From sequence record PZ513998.1: 56,697 bases of DNA; one strand, written 5' to 3'. The translations under genes were made by a program, and so were the position numbers. This document shows, piece after piece, positions 1-56,697 of the stretch (position 1 is its first letter; the number at the start of each line of letters is the position of its first letter). The notes beneath the pieces are model-generated. The model was not told the DNA's origin. It saw nothing but the letters and a program-made list of their open reading frames with translations, and made no database searches. This stretch comes from a phage.

Positions 1-180
1 ATGGTGATCAGGGAAAAGAAAAACTGGTATTATTGTTCATGCGGTAAGCCGTTTAGATCTGAGGCTCGCAGTAGTAACGGGCTAGTTTTGTTTCGATTAA
101 AGTGCGTATCCTGTGGGATATATTCACCGTGGCGCGGTTCAATTGGGCTATGTGTAGCGACGCTTGACAGCACCACGTAA
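1..180 (+). CDS. hypothetical small Cys-rich protein (zinc-ribbon-like CxCG ... CxxCG)
   Basis: 59-codon ATG..TAA ORF at window start, below the ORF-track size cutoff; translation MVIREKKNWYYCSCGKPF...KCVSCGIY; its first 7 nt ATGGTGA repeat the last 7 nt of ORF 181-546. Confidence 0.3.
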   Translation: MVIREKKNWYYCSCGKPFRSEARSSNGLVLFRLKCVSCGIYSPWRGSIGLCVATLDSTT

Positions 181-14160: not shown

Positions 14161-14294
14161 ATGTTGTACAAAAATCACCCAACACACATGATCGAATTAC
14201 CTTTATATAGCTTATATATATATTTTTCTATTTTTCCTTTCCTATCTATTTTTTCTTTCTTCTGGAATTTCTATTTTATTATCTATTACTGTGT

Positions 14295-14350
14295 TTGCTG
14301 TGTCAGAAAGAAAGTAATATAGTTGCTGTGTCAGAAAGAAAGTAATATAG
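14295..14350. repeat. tandem direct repeat, 2 x 28 bp (TTGCTGTGTCAGAAAGAAAGTAATATAG)
   Basis: two perfect adjacent copies at 14295-14322 and 14323-14350, inside an AT-rich stretch. Confidence 0.9.
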
Positions 14351-15090
14351 TAAAAACAATAACTTACCTTGGAACACCTATTGGAACATCAGCCGGCACA
14401 GCAATTTCCTGTGACACACCACCAGCCATGGTAATACCTAAAACGGCGCATAACTATTTGATATTATTACGGAATTACCTAAAATACCGGTCATTACGGT
14501 AAATGATGTCCCCTATTGCTAAAGCCTGTGCGTCGCTCTCCGTGCTTTCTAGAGAAGAATCACTTTTAAATCGAAAAAGGTACTTGGACGAGTTGTCCGG
14601 TTGGGCGGGGGTGCGCAGAGCCGTCTTCCAGAAATTTGTCCGGGATCTGCCATAGATGTTTGGGTGTTCGGGTGGGCGGTGTTGTGGGTTAGATGTGCTT
14701 CAAATTGTAAGCGTGTGCGATTGTGCGAGGCGATCGCGGTGTTAGTTGTCGGTCGTATCCGTTGAGCGGGGGTATAGCGCCTCGGGTGAACACGCCGATC
14801 GGGAACGTCGTTTTTACGTTTTGTGCGGGTGTTCGGGTGTGCGGTTGTACCGCATGACGTTTTTACAAATATAAATGCGGTCGCGCCAGCGCCTACCCAC
14901 CCAACACCACCACCCCAAGCCCTCACTCTCCCCCATTCCCCCCCACCCTATGGAAAATTGCCGTAAAGCCATGTGTTGCGTCCTCAGCGTGTTTTGCCCG
15001 CTAGGTAAGGCCGATGTATTACCTACGATGAGTTATGCCCGTGTGGTTCGATTGAGGGCGGAAGACGGCGCTTTGTTTGTTCCGACTTAA

Positions 15091-15330
15091 ATGAGCATTC
15101 TCAAGATGCTACTCTCCGGTGTGTACAACGTGGGCGCCGTGTGTTTCTTCGGCCTAATTTCGATTTATATTCTCTCGTTCTTTTTCCGCGCCCTACAAAA
15201 CCACGGTTTCGACGGTCTACACCGCACTACGTTAGTTCTCGAATCAATCGGCGCTATCATGATGGTCGTCTTCATGGTTTGCGTTGCGATCTTGGTGTTC
15301 GCCGGAGGCGTCGCCCTAACAATCCGGTAG
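15091..15330 (+). CDS. hypothetical small membrane protein (2 predicted TM helices)
   Basis: 79 aa; hydrophobic stretches GAVCFFGLISIYILSFFF and IGAIMMVVFMVCVAILVFAGGVAL. Confidence 0.3.
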   Translation: MSILKMLLSGVYNVGAVCFFGLISIYILSFFFRALQNHGFDGLHRTTLVLESIGAIMMVVFMVCVAILVFAGGVALTIR

Positions 15331-15909
15331 ATGAGTTGTAACTGTTTCGATCGTATTCAAAAATCGATGGCTGATCGGGTGGCCGGTAAGTTGCCGAACG
15401 GCGCAATAATACACTCGGCGGAGTGGAAAACAGAAGTGTTAGCTATTGAAAATAAAAAGTTGAAAACCCGATATTTTCTAGACTTCACCATAGAGTATCA
15501 AGAGCGTAGACCGGACGGGACGCTCTACTCGACGGTAACAAAATCTGATTTTCCTGTGTTTATGAATTATTGCCCGTTCTGTGGCGTAAAGTTCGAGGAG
15601 GACGAACAAACTCAGGATCAGGAAGACCGTTTTAAATTCCCTGCGCTAGTCTACGTCAAAAATGGAAAAGACCCCATCGCACACACGGGGGCAACGTTAC
15701 AACGAAGTGGGACAGAACACCCTCGCGGAATGTTTGCGGAGTACGTGAACGTGCGAACCAATGAGCGGATTTACTTTTCTGAGTCGTTGATGTCCTCCCG
15801 CCTAGACGGTGGCGATTACGTCGAGATCCCCGACGACTGGGAACAACTCAGCGACTATTGCCAGAAAGACATAATCGCAGAACGAAAAGCACGAGGCGGT
15901 CGAAAATGA
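15331..15909 (+). CDS. hypothetical protein with Cys pairs (CNCF ... CPFCG)
   Basis: 192-aa ORF; possible zinc ribbon; no family recognised. Confidence 0.3.
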   Translation: MSCNCFDRIQKSMADRVAGKLPNGAIIHSAEWKTEVLAIENKKLKTRYFLDFTIEYQERRPDGTLYSTVTKSDFPVFMNYCPFCGVKFEEDEQTQDQEDRFKFPALVYVKNGKDPIAHTGATLQRSGTEHPRGMFAEYVNVRTNERIYFSESLMSSRLDGGDYVEIPDDWEQLSDYCQKDIIAERKARGGRK

Positions 15910-16122
15910 ATGGAAATAATCAACGCTTGGCCGTTTTGTCTCGGTGTCGTTTTGATGGTGTTAGGGTTCGGCGTGGCTGTCCTGTGTATCGTGGGGACGA
16001 ACAAAGCGACCCGAAGCGAAACCTTTGAGAAATTACGCGCTGTAAGTTTAGCCGGAATCACCTTTGTGATGGTGGGCGCGTGTTTCGTCATCTACTCGTC
16101 TGTTAGGAGTCAATTATTATGA
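15910..16122 (+). CDS. hypothetical small membrane protein
   Basis: 70 aa; two hydrophobic helices (WPFCLGVVLMVLGFGVAVLCIV, LAGITFVMVGACFVIY). Confidence 0.3.
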   Translation: MEIINAWPFCLGVVLMVLGFGVAVLCIVGTNKATRSETFEKLRAVSLAGITFVMVGACFVIYSSVRSQLL

Positions 16123-16812
16123 ATGATCGTATTAACTGGTTGTACTCAAAACACGTTTGACATGAAGATCCACACTAAAGCGGGCGCCGTTTTCCATACA
16201 AATATTAGCTTTGAAGATTTCCGCACTAAAGCCAGTGGGGCTTCGTACCACTTGCATAAAATGGGTCATGAACTGGGCGACGTTGAGTCTCTTGGCATGG
16301 TTCCGGAAGATAGGTTTAACCGTGTGCGCTTTTGGGCGCATGGCATGGAAAAGCTGATCGTAGCGCATAATACCGGCTTTCACTCGTTCGACTTTCTCCA
16401 CGTTGATTTATTGCCGATAAATACACTACTAGGTGAGGTCAAAACGCCGTTAATCATTCCGTCGTTGATTGGTGGCGTGAATCTCGGCACATGGAAAAAC
16501 GATTGTTATTTAATTACCTCACCCTTGGCGAAAGATAACGGTAAATCGGTTCTAGTATGTCAAGGGGAGAAAGTTCTAGAGGACGAGGAACTAACGCAAT
16601 CAGAGCTAGACGCGGGGGAGAACTTGAACACACTCACCGTATTAACTGACCTGCAAACACTCCGCCAGCCTTACCTAGTCAGCGATGGCGATTTATTTTG
16701 CGACCAGTTCGATTCTAGCGTGGGGATTGTGTTAAACGTTGTCGCGGACACCTACGGGGATATTGTCATTAACCCACACGGAATAGCAAATACTCAATTT
16801 ATGGATCGCTAG
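16123..16812 (+). CDS. hypothetical protein
   Basis: 229-aa ORF; no motif recognised. Confidence 0.3.
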   Translation: MIVLTGCTQNTFDMKIHTKAGAVFHTNISFEDFRTKASGASYHLHKMGHELGDVESLGMVPEDRFNRVRFWAHGMEKLIVAHNTGFHSFDFLHVDLLPINTLLGEVKTPLIIPSLIGGVNLGTWKNDCYLITSPLAKDNGKSVLVCQGEKVLEDEELTQSELDAGENLNTLTVLTDLQTLRQPYLVSDGDLFCDQFDSSVGIVLNVVADTYGDIVINPHGIANTQFMDR

Positions 16813-17613
16813 ATGAAAAAGATTACTATCGGTGCTTCAGAACGTGCGGAATTACGTCAAATTTGTAACGTTATCAAAGCTAATCCTACGCACTATGAAA
16901 CGGTTACTTACACGAATAAAGACGCGACCGCATCTATCAAAGTTAAATATTCCGCCGGCGAAAAACTAACGTATAAAGCCTTTATCACCGTTATCGTGGG
17001 CGAGAAAGTGGCAACCGAAACCGTAGAAGCCGGAAGTTTTAATATCGTCGAGAACAAGATCCGTGCGTGTGGTTCTGTTGACTACTTGACCGAGTTATCA
17101 AATAAAACCGTATCCCTAGATAAACCGCTTCACGTATCATTGCGTAAATCAATGCAACCAAGCGCACAGCAACGTAGAGGAATCAAGGAGATGACGCGTA
17201 AAGCGGAGAAAGCCGACCCATTGGATTTAGTGCTTATGGATAGCCTCTTGATCGTTCGCAAGTCGTTTGGTGTCGTATATCGTGGCCAAGTTCTAAACTT
17301 CAAAAGTGCTATAAACAATCAAGGGGCGATCAAGATTATCGTGTCTATAAATACGATGTTTAATAACGACTTACAATATGTGTGGTCAATGATATACACC
17401 CTCGACCGTTTGGCCTACGATATACGCAATGGGAACCTCGCCATTCTATCGCATAGTGCGCCGACGAAAGTTTTACGGGTGTACGGTTGGCGCGGTGACT
17501 ATGAGACTATCGCAGTAAACCAGAAAGCCCGACTGTCATCAGTGATCGAGAATTTCATGATTGAGGGTGGTTCTCGTCGCATTGAGTTTCGCCCGTTACC
17601 TCAAAGAAACTAA
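16813..17613 (+). CDS. hypothetical protein
   Basis: 266-aa ORF. Confidence 0.3.
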   Translation: MKKITIGASERAELRQICNVIKANPTHYETVTYTNKDATASIKVKYSAGEKLTYKAFITVIVGEKVATETVEAGSFNIVENKIRACGSVDYLTELSNKTVSLDKPLHVSLRKSMQPSAQQRRGIKEMTRKAEKADPLDLVLMDSLLIVRKSFGVVYRGQVLNFKSAINNQGAIKIIVSINTMFNNDLQYVWSMIYTLDRLAYDIRNGNLAILSHSAPTKVLRVYGWRGDYETIAVNQKARLSSVIENFMIEGGSRRIEFRPLPQRN

Positions 17614-17835
17614 ATGAAGCCGGTAAATAATCCAACCTTGGATAAGACGATCGAGATTTACCAAGAGCGAGGCGAAAATATTTATTACGTTGTTGCGGGC
17701 GGTGTATGGATCGGGACGATTGCCAAGACACCACACCACCTCAAGCCGTGGACTTTCTGCGGGCAAGGTGTGAGCCTTGGCGGGGATTCCTTGGAAATGG
17801 TTAAAAAATCCGTGGTTACGATGCTCACACGGTAA
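17614..17835 (+). CDS. hypothetical protein
   Basis: 73-aa ORF. Confidence 0.25.
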   Translation: MKPVNNPTLDKTIEIYQERGENIYYVVAGGVWIGTIAKTPHHLKPWTFCGQGVSLGGDSLEMVKKSVVTMLTR

Positions 17836-18477
17836 ATGAGACGCGTTGATCCTAAAGACTGTTTAGACATAATCCTAAACTACCATTATGCGAAACGTCG
17901 ACCTAGCATATCTTACGCTTTCGGGTTCTTCGAAGACGAGGAGCTTGTCGGGGTTCTAACTATCGGTAAGCCGGCCAGCAACCCGCTATGTGTTGGAATA
18001 TTGGGCGAGGAGTACAAAAGCCACGTTTTTGAGTTAAACCGACTTTGTTTTATTCGTCCAATCCGTAACGCTCCGTCGCAGTTGATCGCCTTCGCTATGG
18101 CTGAGTTGAAAAGTGAAAACCTTGTCATCGTGTCGTATGCGGATCGCGGTATGAACCACAACGGATATATTTATCAAGCGTCTAATTTCATCTACACGGG
18201 GGCGACGAAAGCGCGCACCGATAAATACACGGAGCAAGGTAAACACTCTCGGCATTATCAAGGAAAGGAAAGCAAGACGTATCGACAAGTCAGAACATCT
18301 AAGCATCGTTACGTTTATTTTACGGGGAGCCGTTCGGTCGTGAAGAAGTATAAAAAGTTGCTTCGATATCCGGTATTGCCTTATCCCAAGGAAGAAAATA
18401 AAAATTATGTGCTCGGATCCGAGTACAAGCAAGAACTCGTTAAGATTAAAGGGGGAGAAAATGAAGCCGGTAAATAA
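17836..18477 (+). CDS. hypothetical protein, possibly GNAT-fold / Mom-like modification enzyme
   Basis: 213 aa; pattern NYHYAKRRP...YAFGFF...GVLTIGKPASNPL...ELNRLCF...LVIVSYAD...HNGYIYQASNF recalls acyltransferase-like phage proteins; recall-based and weak. Confidence 0.25.
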   Translation: MRRVDPKDCLDIILNYHYAKRRPSISYAFGFFEDEELVGVLTIGKPASNPLCVGILGEEYKSHVFELNRLCFIRPIRNAPSQLIAFAMAELKSENLVIVSYADRGMNHNGYIYQASNFIYTGATKARTDKYTEQGKHSRHYQGKESKTYRQVRTSKHRYVYFTGSRSVVKKYKKLLRYPVLPYPKEENKNYVLGSEYKQELVKIKGGENEAGK

Positions 18478-19218
18478 ATGACTTTCATTTCTAACGTTGT
18501 AACCGATAACAGCCCTTTTGATATGCCCGAAAGTGTTCGTAATTATATTTTGACAGTTAACCCTCGCGCCAAGGTGGGCGATGTTAAAACATTATCGGGG
18601 GCGATAGCATTAATTGCGGATTTCGATAAATTCATTCCACTAGCACGTTACCTATTTGAGAGCGTCGAGGTGAGCGTGTTCGATCATGGTGCGAGCTGTC
18701 ATATGGCCAATGATGCGGACTTATCCGCACGAACTATCGCCGTAATGAAAGCGCTGGGGTTCTCTTTAGACCTTGATAAATCTCACGGAGCGACAACATT
18801 TGCGAAAACAATCGACGGGAAAGAATTAAAAGCCATATTTTTTAGCCGTGGCGAAGAAGCCGAAGGTTGGGACATAACTTTCACGATCGGCGGGTGTGTG
18901 ACGCTTAAACGTAACGCGGTTAGCGATTTAGACGCCTTGATCTTGGCGTCACTCCCTGAAAGTTTCGACACAATGCGCCCACTGTTAGACGGCCTGTCAA
19001 GCCTTGGTTTCGAAGTGAACAACGAAGCATCAGTTGACGGGCTTACAGTGTTCTACTGCGAAGACGACGGGCGAGAAATCCACGTGAAAGATGGCGACGT
19101 GTTCGGGCATTTTTTCGCGGTCTACTTCGTTGATGGTAAAGACGTTGCGATACGCGCGAATCGTCCGGCCGAAATTATTGTTCGTGACGCCTCAGAATCG
19201 TGGACGTGGGAGGGTTAA
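18478..19218 (+). CDS. hypothetical protein
   Basis: 246-aa ORF. Confidence 0.3.
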   Translation: MTFISNVVTDNSPFDMPESVRNYILTVNPRAKVGDVKTLSGAIALIADFDKFIPLARYLFESVEVSVFDHGASCHMANDADLSARTIAVMKALGFSLDLDKSHGATTFAKTIDGKELKAIFFSRGEEAEGWDITFTIGGCVTLKRNAVSDLDALILASLPESFDTMRPLLDGLSSLGFEVNNEASVDGLTVFYCEDDGREIHVKDGDVFGHFFAVYFVDGKDVAIRANRPAEIIVRDASESWTWEG

Positions 19219-19285
19219 GTGAGTAATATAATACTACCGCTTTCAGGTGTCAACAAGTTTTTTATAAATATTTTAGGCAATAAAA

Positions 19286-19327
19286 AACCTCTTACCGTGG
19301 CACCGAATAAGAGGTTTTAGTTGTTTT
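19286..19327 (+). terminator. intrinsic terminator-like hairpin (AACCTCTTA / TAAGAGGTT stem, 13-nt loop) followed by a T-rich run
   Basis: perfect 9-bp inverted repeat at 19286-19294 and 19308-19316, then TTTTAGTTGTTTTC; lies just after ORF 18478-19218. Confidence 0.5.
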
Positions 19328-19404
19328 CATGTTTTCAAATCAAGGCTATATTAACGGATATTTTTCAACTTGTAAACAATAAATTTCTCAGCGGAAAAGA
19401 AAAA

Positions 19405-19422
19405 AGCCCGCATATACGGGCT
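19405..19422 (-). terminator. hairpin AGCCCG-CATATA-CGGGCT preceded by an A-run (terminator-like on the minus strand)
   Basis: 6-bp stem, 6-nt loop; AAAAGAAAAA immediately upstream on +, i.e. a T-run after the hairpin on the minus strand. Confidence 0.35.
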
Positions 19423-19425
19423 TAA

Positions 19426-19995
19426 ATGGCAGAATTAGCATACACTAAAGCGTCTATCTTCCAATCTATCGTTGATGATGTTAGTACGGGTCTACCTAAA
19501 GGAACTTCATTAGATACCCGCGGAGATTTCGAAAATCAATTACGCGACCTTTTCGAAGAAAATAATCTTATGAATGCGCCGGAATGTATCAGCGTCGACT
19601 ACTTCGGGGAAGCATGGGAGATCGTCCAGTCTAGCGAGTTTGATTCTGTTGAGCTAGAAACGCCTTTAGATTTCAGCGGGTGCAAAAGTTCATTAAAATG
19701 TTTGATGATGGAAGCTAACGCATTAATAAGCGCGTCTTGGCGTGAACAAGTGGAAGCCTACATCGAAGAACTGGCCGAAGCACTGGAAGAAGTTGTCGAG
19801 GGTTGCGAGGAGTTCGGAACAATCGACGAACTGGTAATCACTGGCGGGTGCCGTTTCGGTCACATTCCACACCTAAGAGAGTTCGATGCTGGCGACTTTT
19901 CTGTGTGCATGTGGGCGCCGAACGAAGCCGGAGAGTCTGAAATTTATTATAATTTCCGAGGTCTGGAACTGCGCGGGGTTGTATATCATGGGTAA
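19426..19995 (+). CDS. hypothetical acidic protein
   Basis: 189-aa ORF. Confidence 0.3.
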   Translation: MAELAYTKASIFQSIVDDVSTGLPKGTSLDTRGDFENQLRDLFEENNLMNAPECISVDYFGEAWEIVQSSEFDSVELETPLDFSGCKSSLKCLMMEANALISASWREQVEAYIEELAEALEEVVEGCEEFGTIDELVITGGCRFGHIPHLREFDAGDFSVCMWAPNEAGESEIYYNFRGLELRGVVYHG

Positions 19996-20373
19996 GTGGA
20001 CGGTGTGACATACTTTTCATCAGTTCCTAAAGATACCAATTCACGCCGGGCGAGATCCCGGCTTTCTTCGTTCTTGAGTCCGCACGAAAAAGAGTTACAA
20101 CTATCTACGCACGACATACAGACTATTTTAAACCTAGCTAATGCGTTTTACTTCCGAGCTGATCCGGAGAGTAAACCGGCTTACTCAGACAACAAAACTA
20201 TTGTAAGCCTTCGCATATCCGGAATAGTCGAAGATGATCGGGGCTGGCTCATTATCCGCCGGCATTTCCTTAATTCTGGTCAGTGCTGGAAGACGTTGCA
20301 CTTAGAGGTTATTTTTACCCACATAGAAAATCTGACCTTATGTGAGTGTAAAATTCCCTATTTCCCCGATTGA
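19996..20373 (+). CDS. hypothetical protein
   Basis: 125-aa ORF, GTG start. Confidence 0.25.
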   Translation: MDGVTYFSSVPKDTNSRRARSRLSSFLSPHEKELQLSTHDIQTILNLANAFYFRADPESKPAYSDNKTIVSLRISGIVEDDRGWLIIRRHFLNSGQCWKTLHLEVIFTHIENLTLCECKIPYFPD

Positions 20374-20565
20374 ATGATGAAGAATAAAATCACATTAAAC
20401 AGCGGTATGATTTTAATCGCTGACGACGAAAAAGTTACGGTAAACGCAGACGGTTCGCTATTCTGTCCGGCGTGGGATATGCGCTTTATGTTAACTCGTA
20501 ACATTTCATATAATCGAACGGTTACACATCGAGAGGTGAAAAGTTTTGAGCGATTATACAGTTGA
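20374..20565 (+). CDS. hypothetical protein
   Basis: 63-aa ORF. Confidence 0.2.
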   Translation: MMKNKITLNSGMILIADDEKVTVNADGSLFCPAWDMRFMLTRNISYNRTVTHREVKSFERLYS

Positions 20566-20808
20566 ATGGCTAAGAAATTAAATAATTTAGAGGCTCGCGG
20601 GGCGTTTGGTTTTGTCGTCGCGTCTCTTTGTGCGGTAGGGTTCGCGGGGGCGGTGGGAACTTTGGCCGTATATGGTGATCTAACCGTCGCGCGTTTCTGT
20701 CTTTATGGGGTAGCGTTTGGGGTGGTCGGCGGGATTGCGTGGCCTGATCAGGAGAGCGGGGAGGCGTTTATATCTGCGATACGTGGGGGCGGTAATGATG
20801 AAGAATAA
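20566..20808 (+). CDS. hypothetical small membrane protein
   Basis: 80 aa; Gly/Ala-rich hydrophobic helices (FGFVVASLCAVGFAGAVGTLAVYG, VAFGVVGGIAW). Confidence 0.25.
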   Translation: MAKKLNNLEARGAFGFVVASLCAVGFAGAVGTLAVYGDLTVARFCLYGVAFGVVGGIAWPDQESGEAFISAIRGGGNDEE

Positions 20809-21135
20809 ATGAGCAAACAAATTCCTTTCGATCTTTTCCGTTCTGCGCATCGTCTGACTGTCACAGGGATCGAGGCGAACTATGAGCAATATGTCGTTCT
20901 CTCCCATAAAGCCGACGCGGATTATCTGGAAAAGTTCATCGATAACTTATTGAATGATTTCCCTTTCCCTGTTGCGATATCAGAAGAAAGAGTGAGTAGC
21001 CCGTCTTCTGTAATTATCCGGTCGGGCTTGATGGTGTCCGAGATTAAAAAGGATATAAAAAGCGGTAAGGTGGCTAATATGTATTTATCGGAGCCGGTTC
21101 GAACTCGCAACGATAATATTATTATTCACCCGTAA
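20809..21135 (+). CDS. hypothetical protein
   Basis: 108-aa ORF. Confidence 0.25.
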   Translation: MSKQIPFDLFRSAHRLTVTGIEANYEQYVVLSHKADADYLEKFIDNLLNDFPFPVAISEERVSSPSSVIIRSGLMVSEIKKDIKSGKVANMYLSEPVRTRNDNIIIHP

Positions 21136-21204
21136 ATGTATGTACGGGCGCACCGGTGGGCGCGTTTCCTTTGTTCCGTCAGAATTTTTATAGATAAAAA
21201 CTTG

Positions 21205-21233
21205 TTGACACCGGCCCGAGGTGTTGCTAATAT
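21205..21233 (+). promoter_or_regulatory. sigma70-like promoter candidate (TTGACA - 17 nt - TAATAT)
   Basis: consensus -35 TTGACA at 21205-21210, 17-nt spacer, -10 TAATAT at 21228-21233. Confidence 0.45.
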
Positions 21234-21262
21234 TCTCAGCACACAAACAAACTGATTGTACT

Positions 21263-21450
21263 TATCTACAAAAATTTCGGGCTTACTTCAAAAACCTCGC
21301 GGGCCGATGATTTTCTGTGACGATTTAAAAACTTTTCCGGCCGGCTTACTTCAAAAACCTCGCGGGCTGAAAAAATTCCCGTGAGTGAGAAATAAAAACC
21401 GGCCAATGGATTTATCTACAAAAATTAGAACCTTACTTCAAAAACCTCGC
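21263..21450 (+). repeat. three direct copies of a 19-bp motif CTTACTTCAAAAACCTCGC plus two copies of TTATCTACAAAAATT
   Basis: 19-mer at 21282-21300, 21345-21363, 21432-21450; TTATCTACAAAAATT at 21263-21277 and 21412-21426. Confidence 0.85.
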
Positions 21451-21474
21451 CGGTTGACGGAAATCCTCGGGTAA

Positions 21475-21906
21475 ATGATCGAGTCAGAAGATATTATTTT
21501 CGTAAACGGCGACAAACCTAAAATCGATAACTCGCCAGCGCTAGAAAGACGCAACACGGTTAGTGTAGAACTAGAACGAGAGTTAACCGCAGCGTCTTCG
21601 ATTCCGGACAAACTTACAGTAGTACCAACAAAAGGGAGACCAACCAGCATGGTAGGTATGATCGTATCGTTAGATGTCGGAGACGTGTTCACTAAATCCG
21701 AGTTTATTCTTGAAGTTTCAGGTCTCGACGCCATGAGCGAGAGCGTAGACCTGACTACACGAAAAGAAAAACTCAGACAAAGCGTAAAAGCGTCTATGAC
21801 ACACGCTAAAAAGAAAACTAAGGGCGAATATACTTTAGAAACGCACCACTTTATTACGCCGTTGGGTCGCCTTTACATTCAAGTTTTAGTGACCCGTATT
21901 TCCTGA
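21475..21906 (+). CDS. hypothetical protein
   Basis: 143-aa ORF. Confidence 0.3.
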   Translation: MIESEDIIFVNGDKPKIDNSPALERRNTVSVELERELTAASSIPDKLTVVPTKGRPTSMVGMIVSLDVGDVFTKSEFILEVSGLDAMSESVDLTTRKEKLRQSVKASMTHAKKKTKGEYTLETHHFITPLGRLYIQVLVTRIS

Positions 21907-22218
21907 ATGGAACGCAACGACAATTTAGAGCACACCACCCCCGCAGACCCGGATACGCAAATCGTCAAGTTGTTAGAGGGGAACCCGGATCTTTTAAAGC
22001 ACTTTTATAAACTTTCCGCATTAGCGGGAAACGTGGGGGAGATGGAACGCTCTTTCGAAGAACGAGTTGACGCCGTGTTTAAAGTAGGTATCCGCCTAGT
22101 CATGGTCGCGAGCAACCGGAAAAACCTTATCGTAACCGATGACGATGTGGCAAAGGCGGAGAACTCAACACTGGAAGTTAGCGAAAATAACGGCAATGTT
22201 AAATATATGATCAAGTAG
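21907..22218 (+). CDS. hypothetical protein
   Basis: 103-aa ORF. Confidence 0.3.
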   Translation: MERNDNLEHTTPADPDTQIVKLLEGNPDLLKHFYKLSALAGNVGEMERSFEERVDAVFKVGIRLVMVASNRKNLIVTDDDVAKAENSTLEVSENNGNVKYMIK

Positions 22219-22539
22219 ATGAAAAATTCAAACGTAGCACTCGCCATTGATTCCGTTTTGGTAAAAAAGAAAATTGATATTATCCCGGTTTTTAAATCGT
22301 TAGAGGAAGAATATCAAATGCGGATACAAGCGTCGTGGTCAGGCATCACCGCGCACACGCCAGAACGACGCATCTACACCCACGGCCACCCGACTACTAA
22401 GATGGCAACAACACCGGAACAACGTACAACGTATCGCCTCCGTCTATTGAAATTCCTACGGTGGCTCTACGCGAACAACTACACAACGGGGCCACTGTTA
22501 GAAATCAAATCGTGGCTAGAGGAGCAAGAGGAATGGTAA
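22219..22539 (+). CDS. hypothetical protein
   Basis: 106-aa ORF. Confidence 0.3.
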   Translation: MKNSNVALAIDSVLVKKKIDIIPVFKSLEEEYQMRIQASWSGITAHTPERRIYTHGHPTTKMATTPEQRTTYRLRLLKFLRWLYANNYTTGPLLEIKSWLEEQEEW

Positions 22540-22887
22540 ATGGTAAAGGTCTTATACAACAGCGAACAAGCGCAAGTAAACCAGTTGCGAGACCAGATTA
22601 AATCGCACACTGAGTCGTTTGAAACAGCGATGGCCGAAGTCGACCAGATCATTAAAGAAAATATCGAGACATACCTAAACGATATATCCGGGTTAATGAT
22701 GTCGATAGTTAGAGTGTATGACAACGCGGAGATTGAGGACAAAGCGGTGGCCTTAGATCTTGTTCACTCTAAAGCGGTAACTCGTTTAGCTGCTATCGAA
22801 GATAAGAGCATAGAACTACGCGCCCATATTGAAAACTTAGTATCCACCATTAAAACCGGAGTGATTAAAAACAATGAAACCATTTGA
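22540..22887 (+). CDS. hypothetical protein
   Basis: 115-aa ORF, predicted helical. Confidence 0.3.
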   Translation: MVKVLYNSEQAQVNQLRDQIKSHTESFETAMAEVDQIIKENIETYLNDISGLMMSIVRVYDNAEIEDKAVALDLVHSKAVTRLAAIEDKSIELRAHIENLVSTIKTGVIKNNETI

Positions 22888-23976
22888 ATGAAACCATTTG
22901 ATAAATTTATTGCTTTTGCAATATCTGAACCAGCAGACCCTAACAATACGACTTCGTTTTCCGCATTAGCTAACGGGACAGAAGACCAACTAAAACAACT
23001 AGGCCGAGAACTAGAAACAAGCCTGAGAAACTTACCGATCGGAGACCCAAGCGCTATGCAGTGGACGCGCCACGGTTTTGCTAAACCCGACGAGAACGCC
23101 GAACCGATCACCGTTGTAGATGAAGTCCTAGGGGACATGGAAGACACACCATACGTTATGATAGACGAAGCGGGTAAATATCTTGTGTTCACTTTCGAAG
23201 AACGTGCTCGAATGCTAAGCCCGACAACGATCAAGGACGAATTAGAGGTTAAAGTAAAAGATTGGATAGAACGAGTTGGTGACACCCCGACAAAACGTGA
23301 ACGTAATGATATGCGCGATGAAATCATCAATGACTTGTTGCCAAAGGCCACAATAAAGCGCACCAAGACATACGCCATGATCATCAAGGGTGTTCTTATT
23401 GTCTTCGCCGGTAGCAATAACATCGGTGAAAAAGTAGCATCGGCCGTAAGAAAGGTAGTAGGGTCTCTCCCAGTAGTACCATGGTTTGAGCATTCGGCCC
23501 TCATTACGGAGTTTCTAAAGAAAATCGCTACGGTAGACTTTGACCCGGAAGATGCAGTAGGCCAAGCGCTAGATAAATTTGAGATTGTCCGTAGTGCTAA
23601 AGTCTCCGCTGAAACCGGTGCGTACACTTTCAAAGATGTTTTTGACATCACGAATGACGTTTCCTTCAAAGAAGCGCTAGGACAAACTAACGGATACTCA
23701 TACCCTCTCGGGATCACCGAAGCGAATTTAGAATTACGACATGACGCCACAGACAGCCCTATCGGTTTTGTTCTTACGGCCAAAGGCGTTTTAAAGAGCG
23801 TAAATTGGAATGACGAGCCGGAAAATATTTTCGACGACTCAGTGTTTGACACGAACGAGGAACGGGAGCGTGCTCGATTTATTTTCTCTACGTGGGACGC
23901 TTACACCTTAGTTACGGCCGTGCTAGGAGCGCTACACAACGCAAACGCAAACCGATTTGTAGAAGACGATATGTAA
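22888..23976 (+). CDS. RdgC-like recombination-associated protein
   Basis: 362 aa; segment KRERNDMRDEIINDLLPKA...AVRKVVGSLPVVPWFEHS matches the RdgC core (…LKDEVLHSLLPRAF…LLRKSLGSLPVVPLSMEN). Confidence 0.6.
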   Translation: MKPFDKFIAFAISEPADPNNTTSFSALANGTEDQLKQLGRELETSLRNLPIGDPSAMQWTRHGFAKPDENAEPITVVDEVLGDMEDTPYVMIDEAGKYLVFTFEERARMLSPTTIKDELEVKVKDWIERVGDTPTKRERNDMRDEIINDLLPKATIKRTKTYAMIIKGVLIVFAGSNNIGEKVASAVRKVVGSLPVVPWFEHSALITEFLKKIATVDFDPEDAVGQALDKFEIVRSAKVSAETGAYTFKDVFDITNDVSFKEALGQTNGYSYPLGITEANLELRHDATDSPIGFVLTAKGVLKSVNWNDEPENIFDDSVFDTNEERERARFIFSTWDAYTLVTAVLGALHNANANRFVEDDM

Positions 23977-26844: not shown

Positions 26845-27585
26845 ATGATGATCAATCCCTACGCGGTGGAATTACAGAAATTGAAAGACGCCAAGAAACA
26901 CATTCCAAAGCAGATAAAAGACCAATGGCGTACTCCGGACTGGCTTTTCTACGCGCTAAACTCTTTATACGGCCCGTTCTTGGTAGATTTGTTTTCAGAT
27001 GGACAGAATGCTAAGTGCTCCCGGTATTTCATGGCCGAGGATAATGCGCTACAACAGAACTGGAAAGAAGCACTAGAAGACGCCAAGTTTGAATTCCTTA
27101 TCGATGCAGACTGTGCGGGGTACGATGCTACTGACGATCTAAAGACGGCCAAGTGTTTTGCTAACCCGCCATACAGCCCGGCTAAGTATATCGGTAAAGG
27201 GCGTAAGAATAGAATACCGCTCTGTGGTATGCGAAATATCATGGCTAAGGCCTACGAGGAACACAAGGCCGGTTGCCCTTCATTCTGGTTGCTTAAATCC
27301 GCCACGTCAGAAGATTGGTGGCCTAACGAGACCGCAAGCCAGATAATCCACATCAAGGGTAGAATTGCTTTCGAGAAACCGGTGTGGTTTAGAGATGAGG
27401 TCGTAGACCGCGTGGAAAGTAGTGCTGCTTTCGGTGCGTCCGTTGCTATTTTTAACGGAATAAACGATATTCAAGAACCGGAAGCCTACATCAGTCGAGA
27501 TACCTTAAAATTAATAGGGGAGCCACTTGCTGAAATTAATGCGGAAAGACGCGCCGAGTGGATAGCTAGTTTCGACGATCTATAA
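26845..27585 (+). CDS. DNA N6-adenine methyltransferase (phage Dam family)
   Basis: 246 aa; N-terminal WRTPDWLF motif and catalytic NPPY (CFANPPYSP) as in phage Dam-type MTases. Confidence 0.75.
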   Translation: MMINPYAVELQKLKDAKKHIPKQIKDQWRTPDWLFYALNSLYGPFLVDLFSDGQNAKCSRYFMAEDNALQQNWKEALEDAKFEFLIDADCAGYDATDDLKTAKCFANPPYSPAKYIGKGRKNRIPLCGMRNIMAKAYEEHKAGCPSFWLLKSATSEDWWPNETASQIIHIKGRIAFEKPVWFRDEVVDRVESSAAFGASVAIFNGINDIQEPEAYISRDTLKLIGEPLAEINAERRAEWIASFDDL

Positions 27586-30147: not shown

Positions 30148-30402
30148 ATGTCCTTTTGGGCTAAAATCAAGGCGATGGCTCTAGGGGTCGTCGCCTTTTT
30201 TGTCCTCCTATTCCTAACGTGGCGTAAAGGAAAACAGGACGGAAAGAACGAGAAAGTTATCGAAGATATTATCGATAACCATATTGAACAAGAACGAGTT
30301 AATGAGGTAAAACAAGATGTCGATTCGGGGATTAATAGCTTACCGGACGGCGGTAGTTCTGATCGTCTTCGCAGTGGTTGGTTGCGTAAAGACCGTAAAT
30401 AA
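30148..30402 (+). CDS. putative lysis-associated membrane protein (holin- or spanin-like)
   Basis: 84 aa; single N-terminal TM helix (AMALGVVAFFVLLFLTW) then charged helical tail; next to putative lysin. Confidence 0.3.
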   Translation: MSFWAKIKAMALGVVAFFVLLFLTWRKGKQDGKNEKVIEDIIDNHIEQERVNEVKQDVDSGINSLPDGGSSDRLRSGWLRKDRK

Positions 30403-31107
30403 ATGGCGAATTTAAAGCCTAAAGGTATCAGACAAAATAACCCGGGTAACTTGGAGTGGGGATCTCCTTGGCAGGGGCTAGTACCGAAAGCGGAGAGAAC
30501 GTCTCCTCGCTTTTGTGAATTCGTAAATCCGGTTTATGGTATTCGTGCGATCGCAGTAACGTTAATCACGTATTACGATAAGCGCAAATCAAAGAACGGC
30601 TCTCGCATCGACTCCGCGCGTGAAATCGTTGAGCGTTGGGCGCCGGGGTCGGAGAAAGGGAATAATACCAACGTATACGCTAAAAACTTAGCAGACCTAC
30701 TAGGCGTTGGCCCGGACGACGAAGTTATCGATATGCACGACTACGACCAGTTGTTTTTATTGGTGTCAGGCATCATCGGTACAGAAAACGGCTTCAATGG
30801 GCCACTCAAAGGCAAAACGGTAAACACTTGGTATTCTGACGAGACTATCGAAGAAGCCCTCCGTATGGCCGGGGTGACTAAGAAACCGAAAGTCGTTAAT
30901 TCTACTGCAACCGTAGCAGCCGGCACCGCAGCACTAGGCGTCGCTCAGTTGGTTGAGGTCGTCCAGCCGGTCAAGGAGGCGGTACACAATGCCTCGGGAG
31001 ACCTTTCATCTGGCGACTACGCTAGAATCTTCCTCGGCGTCGCCACCGTCGGGATCGGGATTTACCTCGGCTATGTCCGCTACCGTAAATTCAAATTGGG
31101 GCAGTGA
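30403..31107 (+). CDS. putative cell-wall hydrolase (endolysin-like) with C-terminal membrane anchor
   Basis: 234 aa; N-terminal IRQNNPGNLEW motif; C-terminal hydrophobic helix RIFLGVATVGIGIYLGYV; flanked by small TM proteins. Confidence 0.3.
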   Translation: MANLKPKGIRQNNPGNLEWGSPWQGLVPKAERTSPRFCEFVNPVYGIRAIAVTLITYYDKRKSKNGSRIDSAREIVERWAPGSEKGNNTNVYAKNLADLLGVGPDDEVIDMHDYDQLFLLVSGIIGTENGFNGPLKGKTVNTWYSDETIEEALRMAGVTKKPKVVNSTATVAAGTAALGVAQLVEVVQPVKEAVHNASGDLSSGDYARIFLGVATVGIGIYLGYVRYRKFKLGQ

Positions 31108-31422
31108 ATGGCGGGTAGAGATGGAGGTACGGGAGGCGTTCGCATTGACTTGGCGATCAATATCCCGACTATCCTTTCGCTAATAGCAGCGTTGTGTAGC
31201 GGTATAATGTGGGTTAATAACCAGTTTAGCAATGTTAGAAACGATGTTTTGTTGGTCACGGCTGACGTTAGAGTCCTAGAACAACGAACAACGCAAGCCG
31301 AGCGGGAAATCGCCGATATAAAACATAATACCGCACAACAAATAAACCAGTTTCGAGGTGAAGTTCGCGAAGACCTTAGAGACATTAAAACTAGCGTTCA
31401 AAAACTCGCAGATAAAAAATAG
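31108..31422 (+). CDS. membrane-anchored coiled-coil protein (spanin-like)
   Basis: 104 aa; TM helix IPTILSLIAALCSGIMWV followed by heptad-like charged helix. Confidence 0.3.
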   Translation: MAGRDGGTGGVRIDLAINIPTILSLIAALCSGIMWVNNQFSNVRNDVLLVTADVRVLEQRTTQAEREIADIKHNTAQQINQFRGEVREDLRDIKTSVQKLADKK

Positions 31423-56181: not shown

Positions 56182-56697
56182 AACCTTTCATACGAACAGT
56201 TTAGCCGAGACTACACGAAGACTAACTATTCTTCCGCGAGAGCCTCAATGGGGGAAACATGGAAATTCATGCAGTCTCGCAAAAAGATCATTGCTGATGC
56301 TTTCGCTACAAACATTTATGCGTTGTGGTTAGAGGAGATGATAAACAAAAACGAAATCCCGTTGCCACGAGGAAAAACGAGCGACTGGTTTTACGAACCG
56401 TTAGTGAAAGACTGTTTAATTCGTTGCGACTGGATAGGTGCAGCCCGCGGTCAAATCGACGAGAAGAAAGAGACCGAAGCAGCTATCATGAGAATTAACA
56501 GTGGTCTGAGCACTCGTGAGAAAGAAATCGCTCGACTCGGCGAAGACTGGAGAGAGATTTTTAGGCAGTTAGAACGAGAAAAACGAATAAAAGATAAATA
56601 CGGGCTTGTTTTCTCCGGAGATGTGAGTAATATATCCGCTAACGAGAAAACAAACTCGGAAGATGACGAAGAAACTAACAGTGGGGATTCGGAATGA
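56182..56697 (+). CDS. portal protein, lambda gpB family, C-terminal fragment lacking a start codon
   Basis: open in frame 1 directly after the protease stop; first ATG only at 56248; translation NLSYEQFSRDYTKTNYSSARAS...CDWIGAARGQIDEKKETEAAIMRINSGLSTREKE is colinear with gpB residues following ...IAAGL (GVSYEQLSRNY...CDWIGSGRMAIDGLKEVQEAVMLIEAGLSTYEKE); continues exactly where ORF 547-1671 stops. Confidence 0.75.
   Translation, partial: NLSYEQFSRDYTKTNYSSARASMGETWKFMQSRKKIIADAFATNIYALWLEEMINKNEIPLPRGKTSDWFYEPLVKDCLIRCDWIGAARGQIDEKKETEAAIMRINSGLSTREKEIARLGEDWREIFRQLEREKRIKDKYGLVFSGDVSNISANEKTNSEDDEETNSGDSE

Follow-up and report, generated by a model that had tools for sequence, protein, structure and literature searches.

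The early regions of virulent phages, such as the class I genes of T7 and the arrays in FelixO1-like phages, consist of small, poorly conserved genes that are driven by strong host-type promoters and include counter-defence genes. Ocr, the product of T7 gene 0.3, is a DNA-mimic inhibitor of type I restriction-modification systems and of BREX. Mom of phage Mu is a GNAT enzyme that moves glycine from Gly-tRNA(Gly) onto adenine N6 in double-stranded DNA, where the adduct rearranges to 6-NcmdA (PMC13219725), and this modification guards against restriction (PMC13219725; PMC7261163). Here, we analyze a block of small genes at positions 15091-22887 of a 56,697-nucleotide (nt) stretch of phage DNA (PZ513998.1, positions 1-56697; hereafter the window). 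An earlier note, made from the sequence of the window, had described this block as about 20 small genes, none of a confidently nameable family, and had suggested it as a place to look for host-takeover or anti-defence functions. We consider it very likely that the block is an ordinary early/accessory region of Escherichia phage E21, the layout of which has been re-stitched in the window, with one product that can be named with confidence, the Mom-family protein gp18. The block resembles the early arrays of T7 and the FelixO1-like phages in all of the traits listed above, and differs from them in that a 96-nt cassette of promoter and 5' untranslated region (UTR) is reused three times and in that the genes are arranged in two divergent arms.

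Layout of the window and of the native genome

The window splits into 85 stop-to-stop segments, which lie in one frame (frame 1) on one strand with zero spacer between neighbours, and every segment except the last begins with a start codon (ATG, GTG or TTG), an arrangement unlike that of any natural genome. We mapped the window onto the genome of Escherichia phage E21 (MN604053/NC_052983; 58,536 bp; Casjensviridae, Lavrentievavirus), which is matched by megablast at 99.9-100% identity in many non-colinear pieces. All segments but one (84 of 85) are exact substrings of one or the other strand of E21. The sole inexact segment, 547-1671, holds the 5' portion of the portal gene, which was cut at the record origin and had a TAA appended, and the remainder of the portal gene is found in the last segment, 56182-56697. 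The segments follow the order of the E21 record, each flipped to the plus strand, except for 1-180 and 181-546, which are out of order. In total, the window lacks 2,273 nt of the intergenic DNA of E21. Since the segments abut in a single frame and strand and 84 of them are exact E21 substrings, the window is a programmatic same-strand concatenation of individually excised open reading frame (ORF) calls and not a native layout, with a permissive ORF caller as the presumable origin. The gene order, strand, spacing and regulatory signals of the window are not biological, and it is unsafe to draw inferences from any of these. Anything else that has been concluded from the order, strand or spacing in this window should be checked again with NC_052983.

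In the native genome, gp12-gp23 (record 15161-22221) are located on the minus strand, opposite to the primase gene and gp24-gp29. Their transcription runs towards the primase gene (gp11, plus strand) and away from gp24-gp39 (plus strand, including RdgC, which is gp29). Since gp12-gp23 are natively on the minus strand, the window order from 15091 to 21135 is the reverse of the order of transcription. The contiguous, co-directional arrangement in which the block was seen in the earlier note is an artefact of the window. Its flanks were correctly recognized as primase (RefSeq annotation) and RdgC (Pfam, E 2e-22), and the placement of the block between these two genes holds in the native genome too. 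The ORF boundaries given in the earlier note were exact, and the ORFs are mostly smaller than 250 amino acids (aa), as it had said; among the 22 stop-to-stop segments in the block only gp16 is larger (266 aa).

The number of genes had been overestimated, with 17 of the 22 segments representing credible genes and five consisting of intergenic DNA. The credible genes are conserved at the protein level, either across many isolates or in the genus Kokobelvirus (Providencia phage Kokobel1, 34-75% aa identity), and 16 of them are annotated in RefSeq (gp12-gp23 and gp25-gp28). In total, 11 leftward genes and all of gp25-gp28 have counterparts in Kokobel1, which belongs to a different genus, and the substitutions relative to Kokobel1 are concentrated at third codon positions in the genes tested. 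It has to be considered that many of the listed ORFs could be products of the permissive caller rather than genes, which is indeed the case for the five intergenic segments, which contain promoters and repeats, and for the segments at 14161-15090 outside the block. For the block at large we regard this as highly improbable, given the protein-level conservation of 17 segments, the third-position bias and the RefSeq annotations.

Over this region, sequences deposited as Enterococcus phage AS-M1_NWU, Staphylococcus phage SVV09-A and Pseudomonas phage E21 share 93-96% identity with these Proteus and Escherichia phages, and the hosts assigned to them look doubtful.

gp18, a member of the Mom family

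The sequence matches place gp18 firmly in the Mom family. Its match to Pfam family PF25680 scored 121.4 bits (gathering cut-off 27.1; E 5.2e-35) and spanned profile positions 5-202 of 202, and the match to the "Mom-like" phrog_1384 had an E-value of 1.4e-68. In addition, Mu Mom itself was recovered both by phmmer (PDB 8bv8_A, E 3.8e-7) and in a tblastn search of phage Mu (E 3e-5; 26% identity with 86% query coverage). With gp18 and gp25, which belongs to the DUF7609 family, two of the genes do have a family that can be named. RefSeq already annotates gp18 as Mom-like; the anti-restriction gene of this block is of a known family, and there is nothing out of the ordinary about the region in a phage that was already known. 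The suggestion of anti-defence content is upheld for this one gene, the family of which has a proven anti-restriction role. The closest relatives of gp18 outside the genus are found in Listeria and Staphylococcus phages of the Herelleviridae (52-55% identity), and 27 records match gp18 at an identity of at least 95%.

We compared gp18 to Mu Mom, JD024 and the homolog in Listeria phage LMTA-34 in a four-way alignment, using the list of important Mu Mom residues in PMC13219725. The Mu residues H58, Y59, R111, S124, D149 and Y159 are all invariant, with the counterpart of S124 located in the motif RNAPSQ. The column of the essential residue R151 contains Gly in gp18 (ADRG, as compared to ADER in Mu), with Arg one position earlier, and the Listeria homolog has ADSG; the alignment is ambiguous by one residue here. 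At the helix-turn-helix (HTH)-like insertion, which covers Mu residues 175-209 and is required for activity, gp18 has a basic segment that, compared to Mu and JD024, is shortened by about 12 residues. gp18 resembles Mu Mom (PDB 8BV8, PF25680) in that the GNAT core is conserved and in being a phage gene of a family with a role in restriction evasion (PMC13219725; PMC7261163). By analogy with Mu Mom, gp18 would transfer glycine from Gly-tRNA(Gly) onto adenine N6 in duplex phage DNA, and the resulting carbamoylmethyl-adenine would block host restriction endonucleases. The exact product, specificity, chemistry and protective effect are in this case extrapolated from the Mu enzyme.

Several observations weigh against a simple transfer of this role. 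The identity of gp18 to Mu Mom is only 26-28%, and gp18 is without the N-terminal 45 residues, W48 (required for the Mu dimer) and W181. Together with Gly in the R151 column and the shorter HTH-like insertion, these departures mean that the activity and the product could differ. Also, EcoRI and HindIII reportedly cut the DNA of RP6, a Lavrentievavirus relative (PMC10194311), and therefore any protection is not general. RP6 carries homologs of gp19 and gp20; its Mom gene was not individually checked.

The genetic context of gp18 differs from that in Mu. The Mu mom promoter is C-activated and late, whereas the gp18 unit is driven by a near-consensus sigma-70 promoter. A com-mom operon of the Mu type, in which the start of mom is overlapped by the gene for Com, a small zinc-finger activator of translation, was not found, in that no com gene overlaps gp18 and the gene upstream is gp19, which has no Cys motif. 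The product of orf59, the sole small protein with four Cys, was considered as an analog of Com and rejected, since it has no similarity to Mu Com and is located in the preceding transcription unit. In Kokobel1, an unrelated 284-aa ORFan (gp56, L004 8138-8992) takes exactly the place of Mom, flanked by the homologs of gp19 and gp17. This ORFan matches neither a Pfam nor a PHROG family and is a candidate for an alternative counter-defence gene.

Elsewhere in E21, gp35 (window 26845-27585) is annotated in RefSeq as a phosphoadenosine phosphosulfate reductase and matches the Pfam family Dam (PF05869, DNA N6-adenine methyltransferase) with an E-value of 9e-30. By this match, gp35 would be a second adenine-modifying enzyme in E21.

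Promoters and probable transcription units

The native leftward arm contains three copies of a 96-nt cassette with 86-97% identity to each other, each with the parts TTGACA, a 17-nt spacer, TATATT, a short hairpin and GAGGA, in that order, such that promoter, 5' UTR and Shine-Dalgarno sequence are combined in one element. The copies end 8-9 nt upstream of the start codons of gp20, gp19 and gp16, and a partial fourth copy is located upstream of gp23. PM87, SD-11_S17 and DanisaurMW retain the cassette at all three of these sites, whereas its conservation in Kokobel1 is partial. A small hairpin, GCCGGAACGAACCGG, is conserved within the 5' UTR of the cassette. The extended motif TTGACACC-N15-TAnnnT occurs in seven copies in the genome, all inside record 17.8-29.2 kb, of which four are directed leftward (gp23, gp20, gp19 and gp16) and three rightward (gp25, gp31 and gp36). 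Only two of the seven survive in the window, both misplaced (Table 1), with the one on the plus strand now downstream of gp23.

Terminator-like hairpins follow orf59, gp17 and gp12 in the native genome. We infer four leftward transcription units, gp23-gp22-gp21-orf125, gp20-orf121-orf59, gp19-Mom-gp17 and gp16-gp15-gp14-gp13-gp12, and a rightward unit that comprises gp25-gp26-gp27-gp28-RdgC and onward. The two divergent arms would start from one intergenic region, with the last three leftward units each headed by a 96-nt cassette. The near-consensus, host-type sigma-70 promoters suggest that both arms may be transcribed early by the host RNA polymerase. The seven promoters are confined to this region, which fits the remark in the earlier note that such blocks are commonly early genes. 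The label "early" is drawn from consensus promoter matches and is thus a putative one.

The five segments that are not genes (19219-19320, 19321-19425, 21136-21255, 21256-21384 and 21385-21474) consist of promoter and repeat DNA. Three direct repeats with the core GGCCCGCGAGGTTTTTGAAGTAAGCC, spaced by 83 and 63 nt, are located between two divergent early promoters (L001 4764-4962) and may be binding sites for a regulator. They give rise to the repeated "LLQKPRG" in the translation and overlap with the RefSeq "gp24" (21256-21384), which is probably not a gene. Neither Rfam families nor tRNAs were identified when the native 17-kb region was scanned for them.

Another set of repeats, TGTGCGGG / TGTTTGGG, is GT-rich with an 8-nt periodicity (window 14503-14874; record about 14503-14780; L001 12572-12849). 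It is located where gp12 and primase converge, within the 1.4-kb gap that separates the two genes, and has been cut into overlapping pseudo-ORFs in the window. These repeats may mark an origin or a site related to packaging.

Table 1. Features of the block and of the displaced segments. Positions and strands refer to the window unless L001 (native E21) is given.
Feature	Position	Strand	Remarks
orf59, 59 aa, CxC...CxxC	1..180	+	Native record 20054-19875, third gene of the gp20 unit; displaced in the window
orf121, 121 aa	181..546	+	Record 20413-20048, directly downstream of gp20; displaced in the window; unannotated in E21 RefSeq
gp12, 79-aa peptide with two transmembrane (TM) segments	15091..15330	+	Last gene of native leftward unit 4
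gp13, 192 aa, CxC...CPFCG	15331..15909	+	phrog_7033 (unknown function)
gp14, 70-aa 2-TM peptide	15910..16122	+	Absent from Kokobel1; sub-threshold TctB match only
gp15, 229 aa, acidic	16123..16812	+	Slot variable between relatives
gp16, 266 aa, basic	16813..17613	+	Opens leftward unit 4, immediately behind a promoter cassette; phrog_37646 (unknown function)
gp17, 73 aa	17614..17835	+	Last gene of the gp19-Mom-gp17 unit; phrog_37849
gp18, Mom-family GNAT-type DNA modification enzyme (anti-restriction), by sequence match	17836..18477	+	PF25680, phrog_1384, PDB 8bv8
gp19, 246 aa, acidic ORFan	18478..19218	+	First gene of the Mom unit
Inverted native intergenic DNA, not genes	19219..19425	-	Record 19547-19762; core of gp19 promoter, motif 19225-19253 (minus)
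gp20, 189 aa, candidate DNA mimic with own promoter cassette	19426..19995	+	
orf125	19996..20373	+	Missing from E21 RefSeq; annotated in SD-11_S17 and DanisaurMW
gp21, 63 aa	20374..20565	+	Early leftward unit (putative)
gp22, 80-aa 2-TM peptide	20566..20808	+	Weak phrog_8635 match; 56% identical to Kokobel1
gp23, 108 aa	20809..21135	+	First gene of native leftward arm; no family match
Divergent promoter region fragments	21136..21474	.	Record 22232-22580; gp23 promoter (21205-21233, plus), three direct repeats, doubtful 42-aa "gp24"
gp25, DUF7609	21475..21906	+	Pfam E 2e-29; phrog_6647; first gene of rightward operon to RdgC
gp26, gp27, gp28 (103, 106, 115 aa)	21907..22887	+	Rightward operon, conserved across both genera
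96-nt cassette copies	L001 6273-6368, 7750-7845, 9512-9607		Native E21

Other genes of the two arms

All ORFs were searched against Pfam, NCBIfam, PHROGs and PADLOC, which recovered Mom, DUF7609 and PHROGs of unknown function only. Confident matches to housekeeping or structural families, named in the earlier note as the observation that would speak against host-takeover functions, were looked for across the genes of the block; neither these nor any defence-system family were found among the proteins in the four databases. A sequence search against the PDB with gp13, gp15, gp16, gp19 and gp20 gave no match below an E-value of 0.4. In searches of the largest protein collections, gp20, gp15 and gp13 each retrieved four to seven close clusters and no others. 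No functional data on the region are given in the papers on Lavrentievavirus. Structure prediction, proposed in the earlier note as a check for each ORF, was informative for gp20, for which the AlphaFold2 (AF2) model had a predicted local distance difference test (pLDDT) value of 80.9, and uninformative for gp15, the model of which (pLDDT 51) was too poor for a structure search.

The most unusual composition was observed for gp20, which has a net charge of -27 and an isoelectric point (pI) of 4.10, corresponding to a charge density twice as high as in any other E21 protein and on par with T7 Ocr (net charge -28, pI 4.05). Its relatives form four clusters among 5.8e9 proteins. Those with 25-30% identity, from Acinetobacter phage YMC13/03/R2096 and Hafnia phages of the Ounavirinae, keep a net charge of -23 to -28 and a pI of 4.05, and are placed within arrays of small early-type genes. 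The model, which was built from a five-sequence alignment (pTM, the predicted template modeling score, 0.79), consists of an N-terminal helical half (H8-22, H35-45, H60-68 and the long helix H89-127) and a C-terminal beta-sheet. As an acidic DNA mimic, gp20 might titrate DNA-binding defence proteins, a role in which we have much less confidence than in that of gp18. Two results weigh against it: the model had no match in the PDB by Foldseek, and the comparison to Ocr by hhalign was not significant (E 0.38 and 0.092, probability <1%). A search of the model against BFVD matched a family member only, and no Pfam family matched gp20 at an E-value of 0.01 or lower. A function as a DNA mimic is best treated as a tentative lead of rather low probability. 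It is likewise a rather doubtful prospect that gp20 founds a new family of DNA-mimic anti-restriction/anti-BREX proteins, with an Ocr-like N-terminal half fused to a beta-sheet domain, which would occur sporadically in unrelated virulent phages (of Proteus, Providencia, Acinetobacter and Hafnia), acting together with a divergent Mom (without R151 and the N-terminus) that may add a different adenine adduct.

The slot of gp15 is variable. Both E21 and DanisaurMW have the gene, whereas PM87 has five small ORFs in its place and SD-11_S17 has others, and Kokobel1 lacks it; only seven close clusters of homologs were found. The replacement proteins in the variable slots of Kokobel1 and PM87 belong to no known families. 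The swapping of the gp15 and Mom slots between relatives would be as for accessory, host-interaction cargo.

The two genes natively located between gp20 and gp19, orf121 and orf59, are displaced in the window. The product of orf121 has no Pfam match, is 54% identical to Kokobel1 gp59 and is 99-100% identical to proteins annotated in PM87, SD-11_S17 and DanisaurMW. That of orf59 is 43-51% identical to Kokobel1 gp58, with Cys12, 14, 35 and 38 invariant across the two genera. For gp13, in which the earlier note had pointed to a zinc ribbon, the cysteine motif was borne out: Cys3, 5, 81 and 84 are invariant across two genera and down to 36% identity. In the large-database search, gp13 homologs were found only within the genus, and the N-terminal 66 aa are missing in SD-11_S17. 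Judged by their cysteine patterns, with four putative metal-ligand Cys placed as in two knuckles, both gp13 and orf59 are candidates for zinc-ribbon or treble-clef proteins.

Kokobel1 also has counterparts of gp16 (45% identity) and gp17 (56% identity). For gp19, an exhaustive HMMER search of 1.84e9 representatives recovered its own cluster and one marginal match only, and tblastn recovered homologs in the genus and Kokobel1 only; the gene is kept in Kokobel1, where Mom is absent. The comparison of orf125 to Kokobel1 gp61 (75% aa identity) revealed 25, 17 and 66 differences at the first, second and third codon positions and a ratio of nonsynonymous to synonymous substitution rates (dN/dS) of about 0.1, a pattern that marks orf125 as a real gene. 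The RefSeq label "tail protein" for gp21 is not credible, since the match covers only positions 157-217 of the 217-aa phrog_18953.

Hydropathy analysis supported the presence of two hydrophobic segments in each of gp12, gp14 and gp22, in agreement with the earlier note; gp12 matches neither a Pfam nor a PHROG family and has no counterpart in Kokobel1. Two helices in 70-80 aa are the typical size and topology of holins, antiholins and some exclusion proteins, and these three peptides could thus be proteins for lysis timing or superinfection exclusion rather than inhibitors of defence. We find this rather unlikely, since the endolysin and spanins are encoded about 10 kb away in another transcription unit (record 31.5-32.9 kb; window 30148-31422), whereas the three peptides are located within the putative sigma-70 early units and gp12 and gp14 are dispensable in Kokobel1.

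The genes of the rightward arm present a different picture. They are conserved across two genera (55% identity for gp25 and its Kokobel1 counterpart) and are located in one operon with RdgC, because of which gp25-gp28 seem closer to core early genes than to cargo directed at host defence, and for them the anti-defence suggestion was not borne out. The matches to gp28 were all sub-threshold, to HBL and, on a likely coiled-coil stretch, to LmuB. The ORF for RdgC in the window (22888-23976) encodes 362 aa, as in PM87 and SD-11_S17, as compared to 306 aa in E21 RefSeq, and the 362-aa form natively overlaps the end of gp28 by 14 nt. It weighs against a host-takeover reading of the region that gp25-gp28, if co-transcribed with RdgC, may serve in replication or recombination. 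Extended to the whole block, this would mean that it mainly consists of core replication, recombination or regulatory accessory genes, with Mom as the sole counter-defence gene. The native position between primase and RdgC, the conservation of 11 leftward genes and of gp25-gp28 in Kokobel1, and the operon that gp25-gp28 share with RdgC and a Dam-family methylase are all in line with this alternative. We nevertheless consider it unlikely, although worth keeping in mind, since no replication or recombination family was identified in any of the proteins, since their homologs are restricted to the phage lineage even among 5.8e9 proteins, and since the genes are small, include membrane peptides and have two slots that turn over between near-identical phages. 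In the early/accessory region that we favour, the other roughly 15 proteins, including the three 2-TM peptides and the two four-cysteine proteins, are lineage-restricted, and an anti-defence role for these about 15 genes is speculation.

These results correct the annotation of E21, to which the real genes orf125, orf121 and orf59 are to be added, and in which "gp24" and the label of gp21 are doubtful. Among the about 20 proteins without assigned function, gp20, the gp15 slot and the Mom-exchange slot are the candidates for anti-defence screening. Lavrentievaviruses are under development for the therapy of Proteus infections, and it is of relevance in this context that the phage carries a recognizable counter-restriction enzyme.

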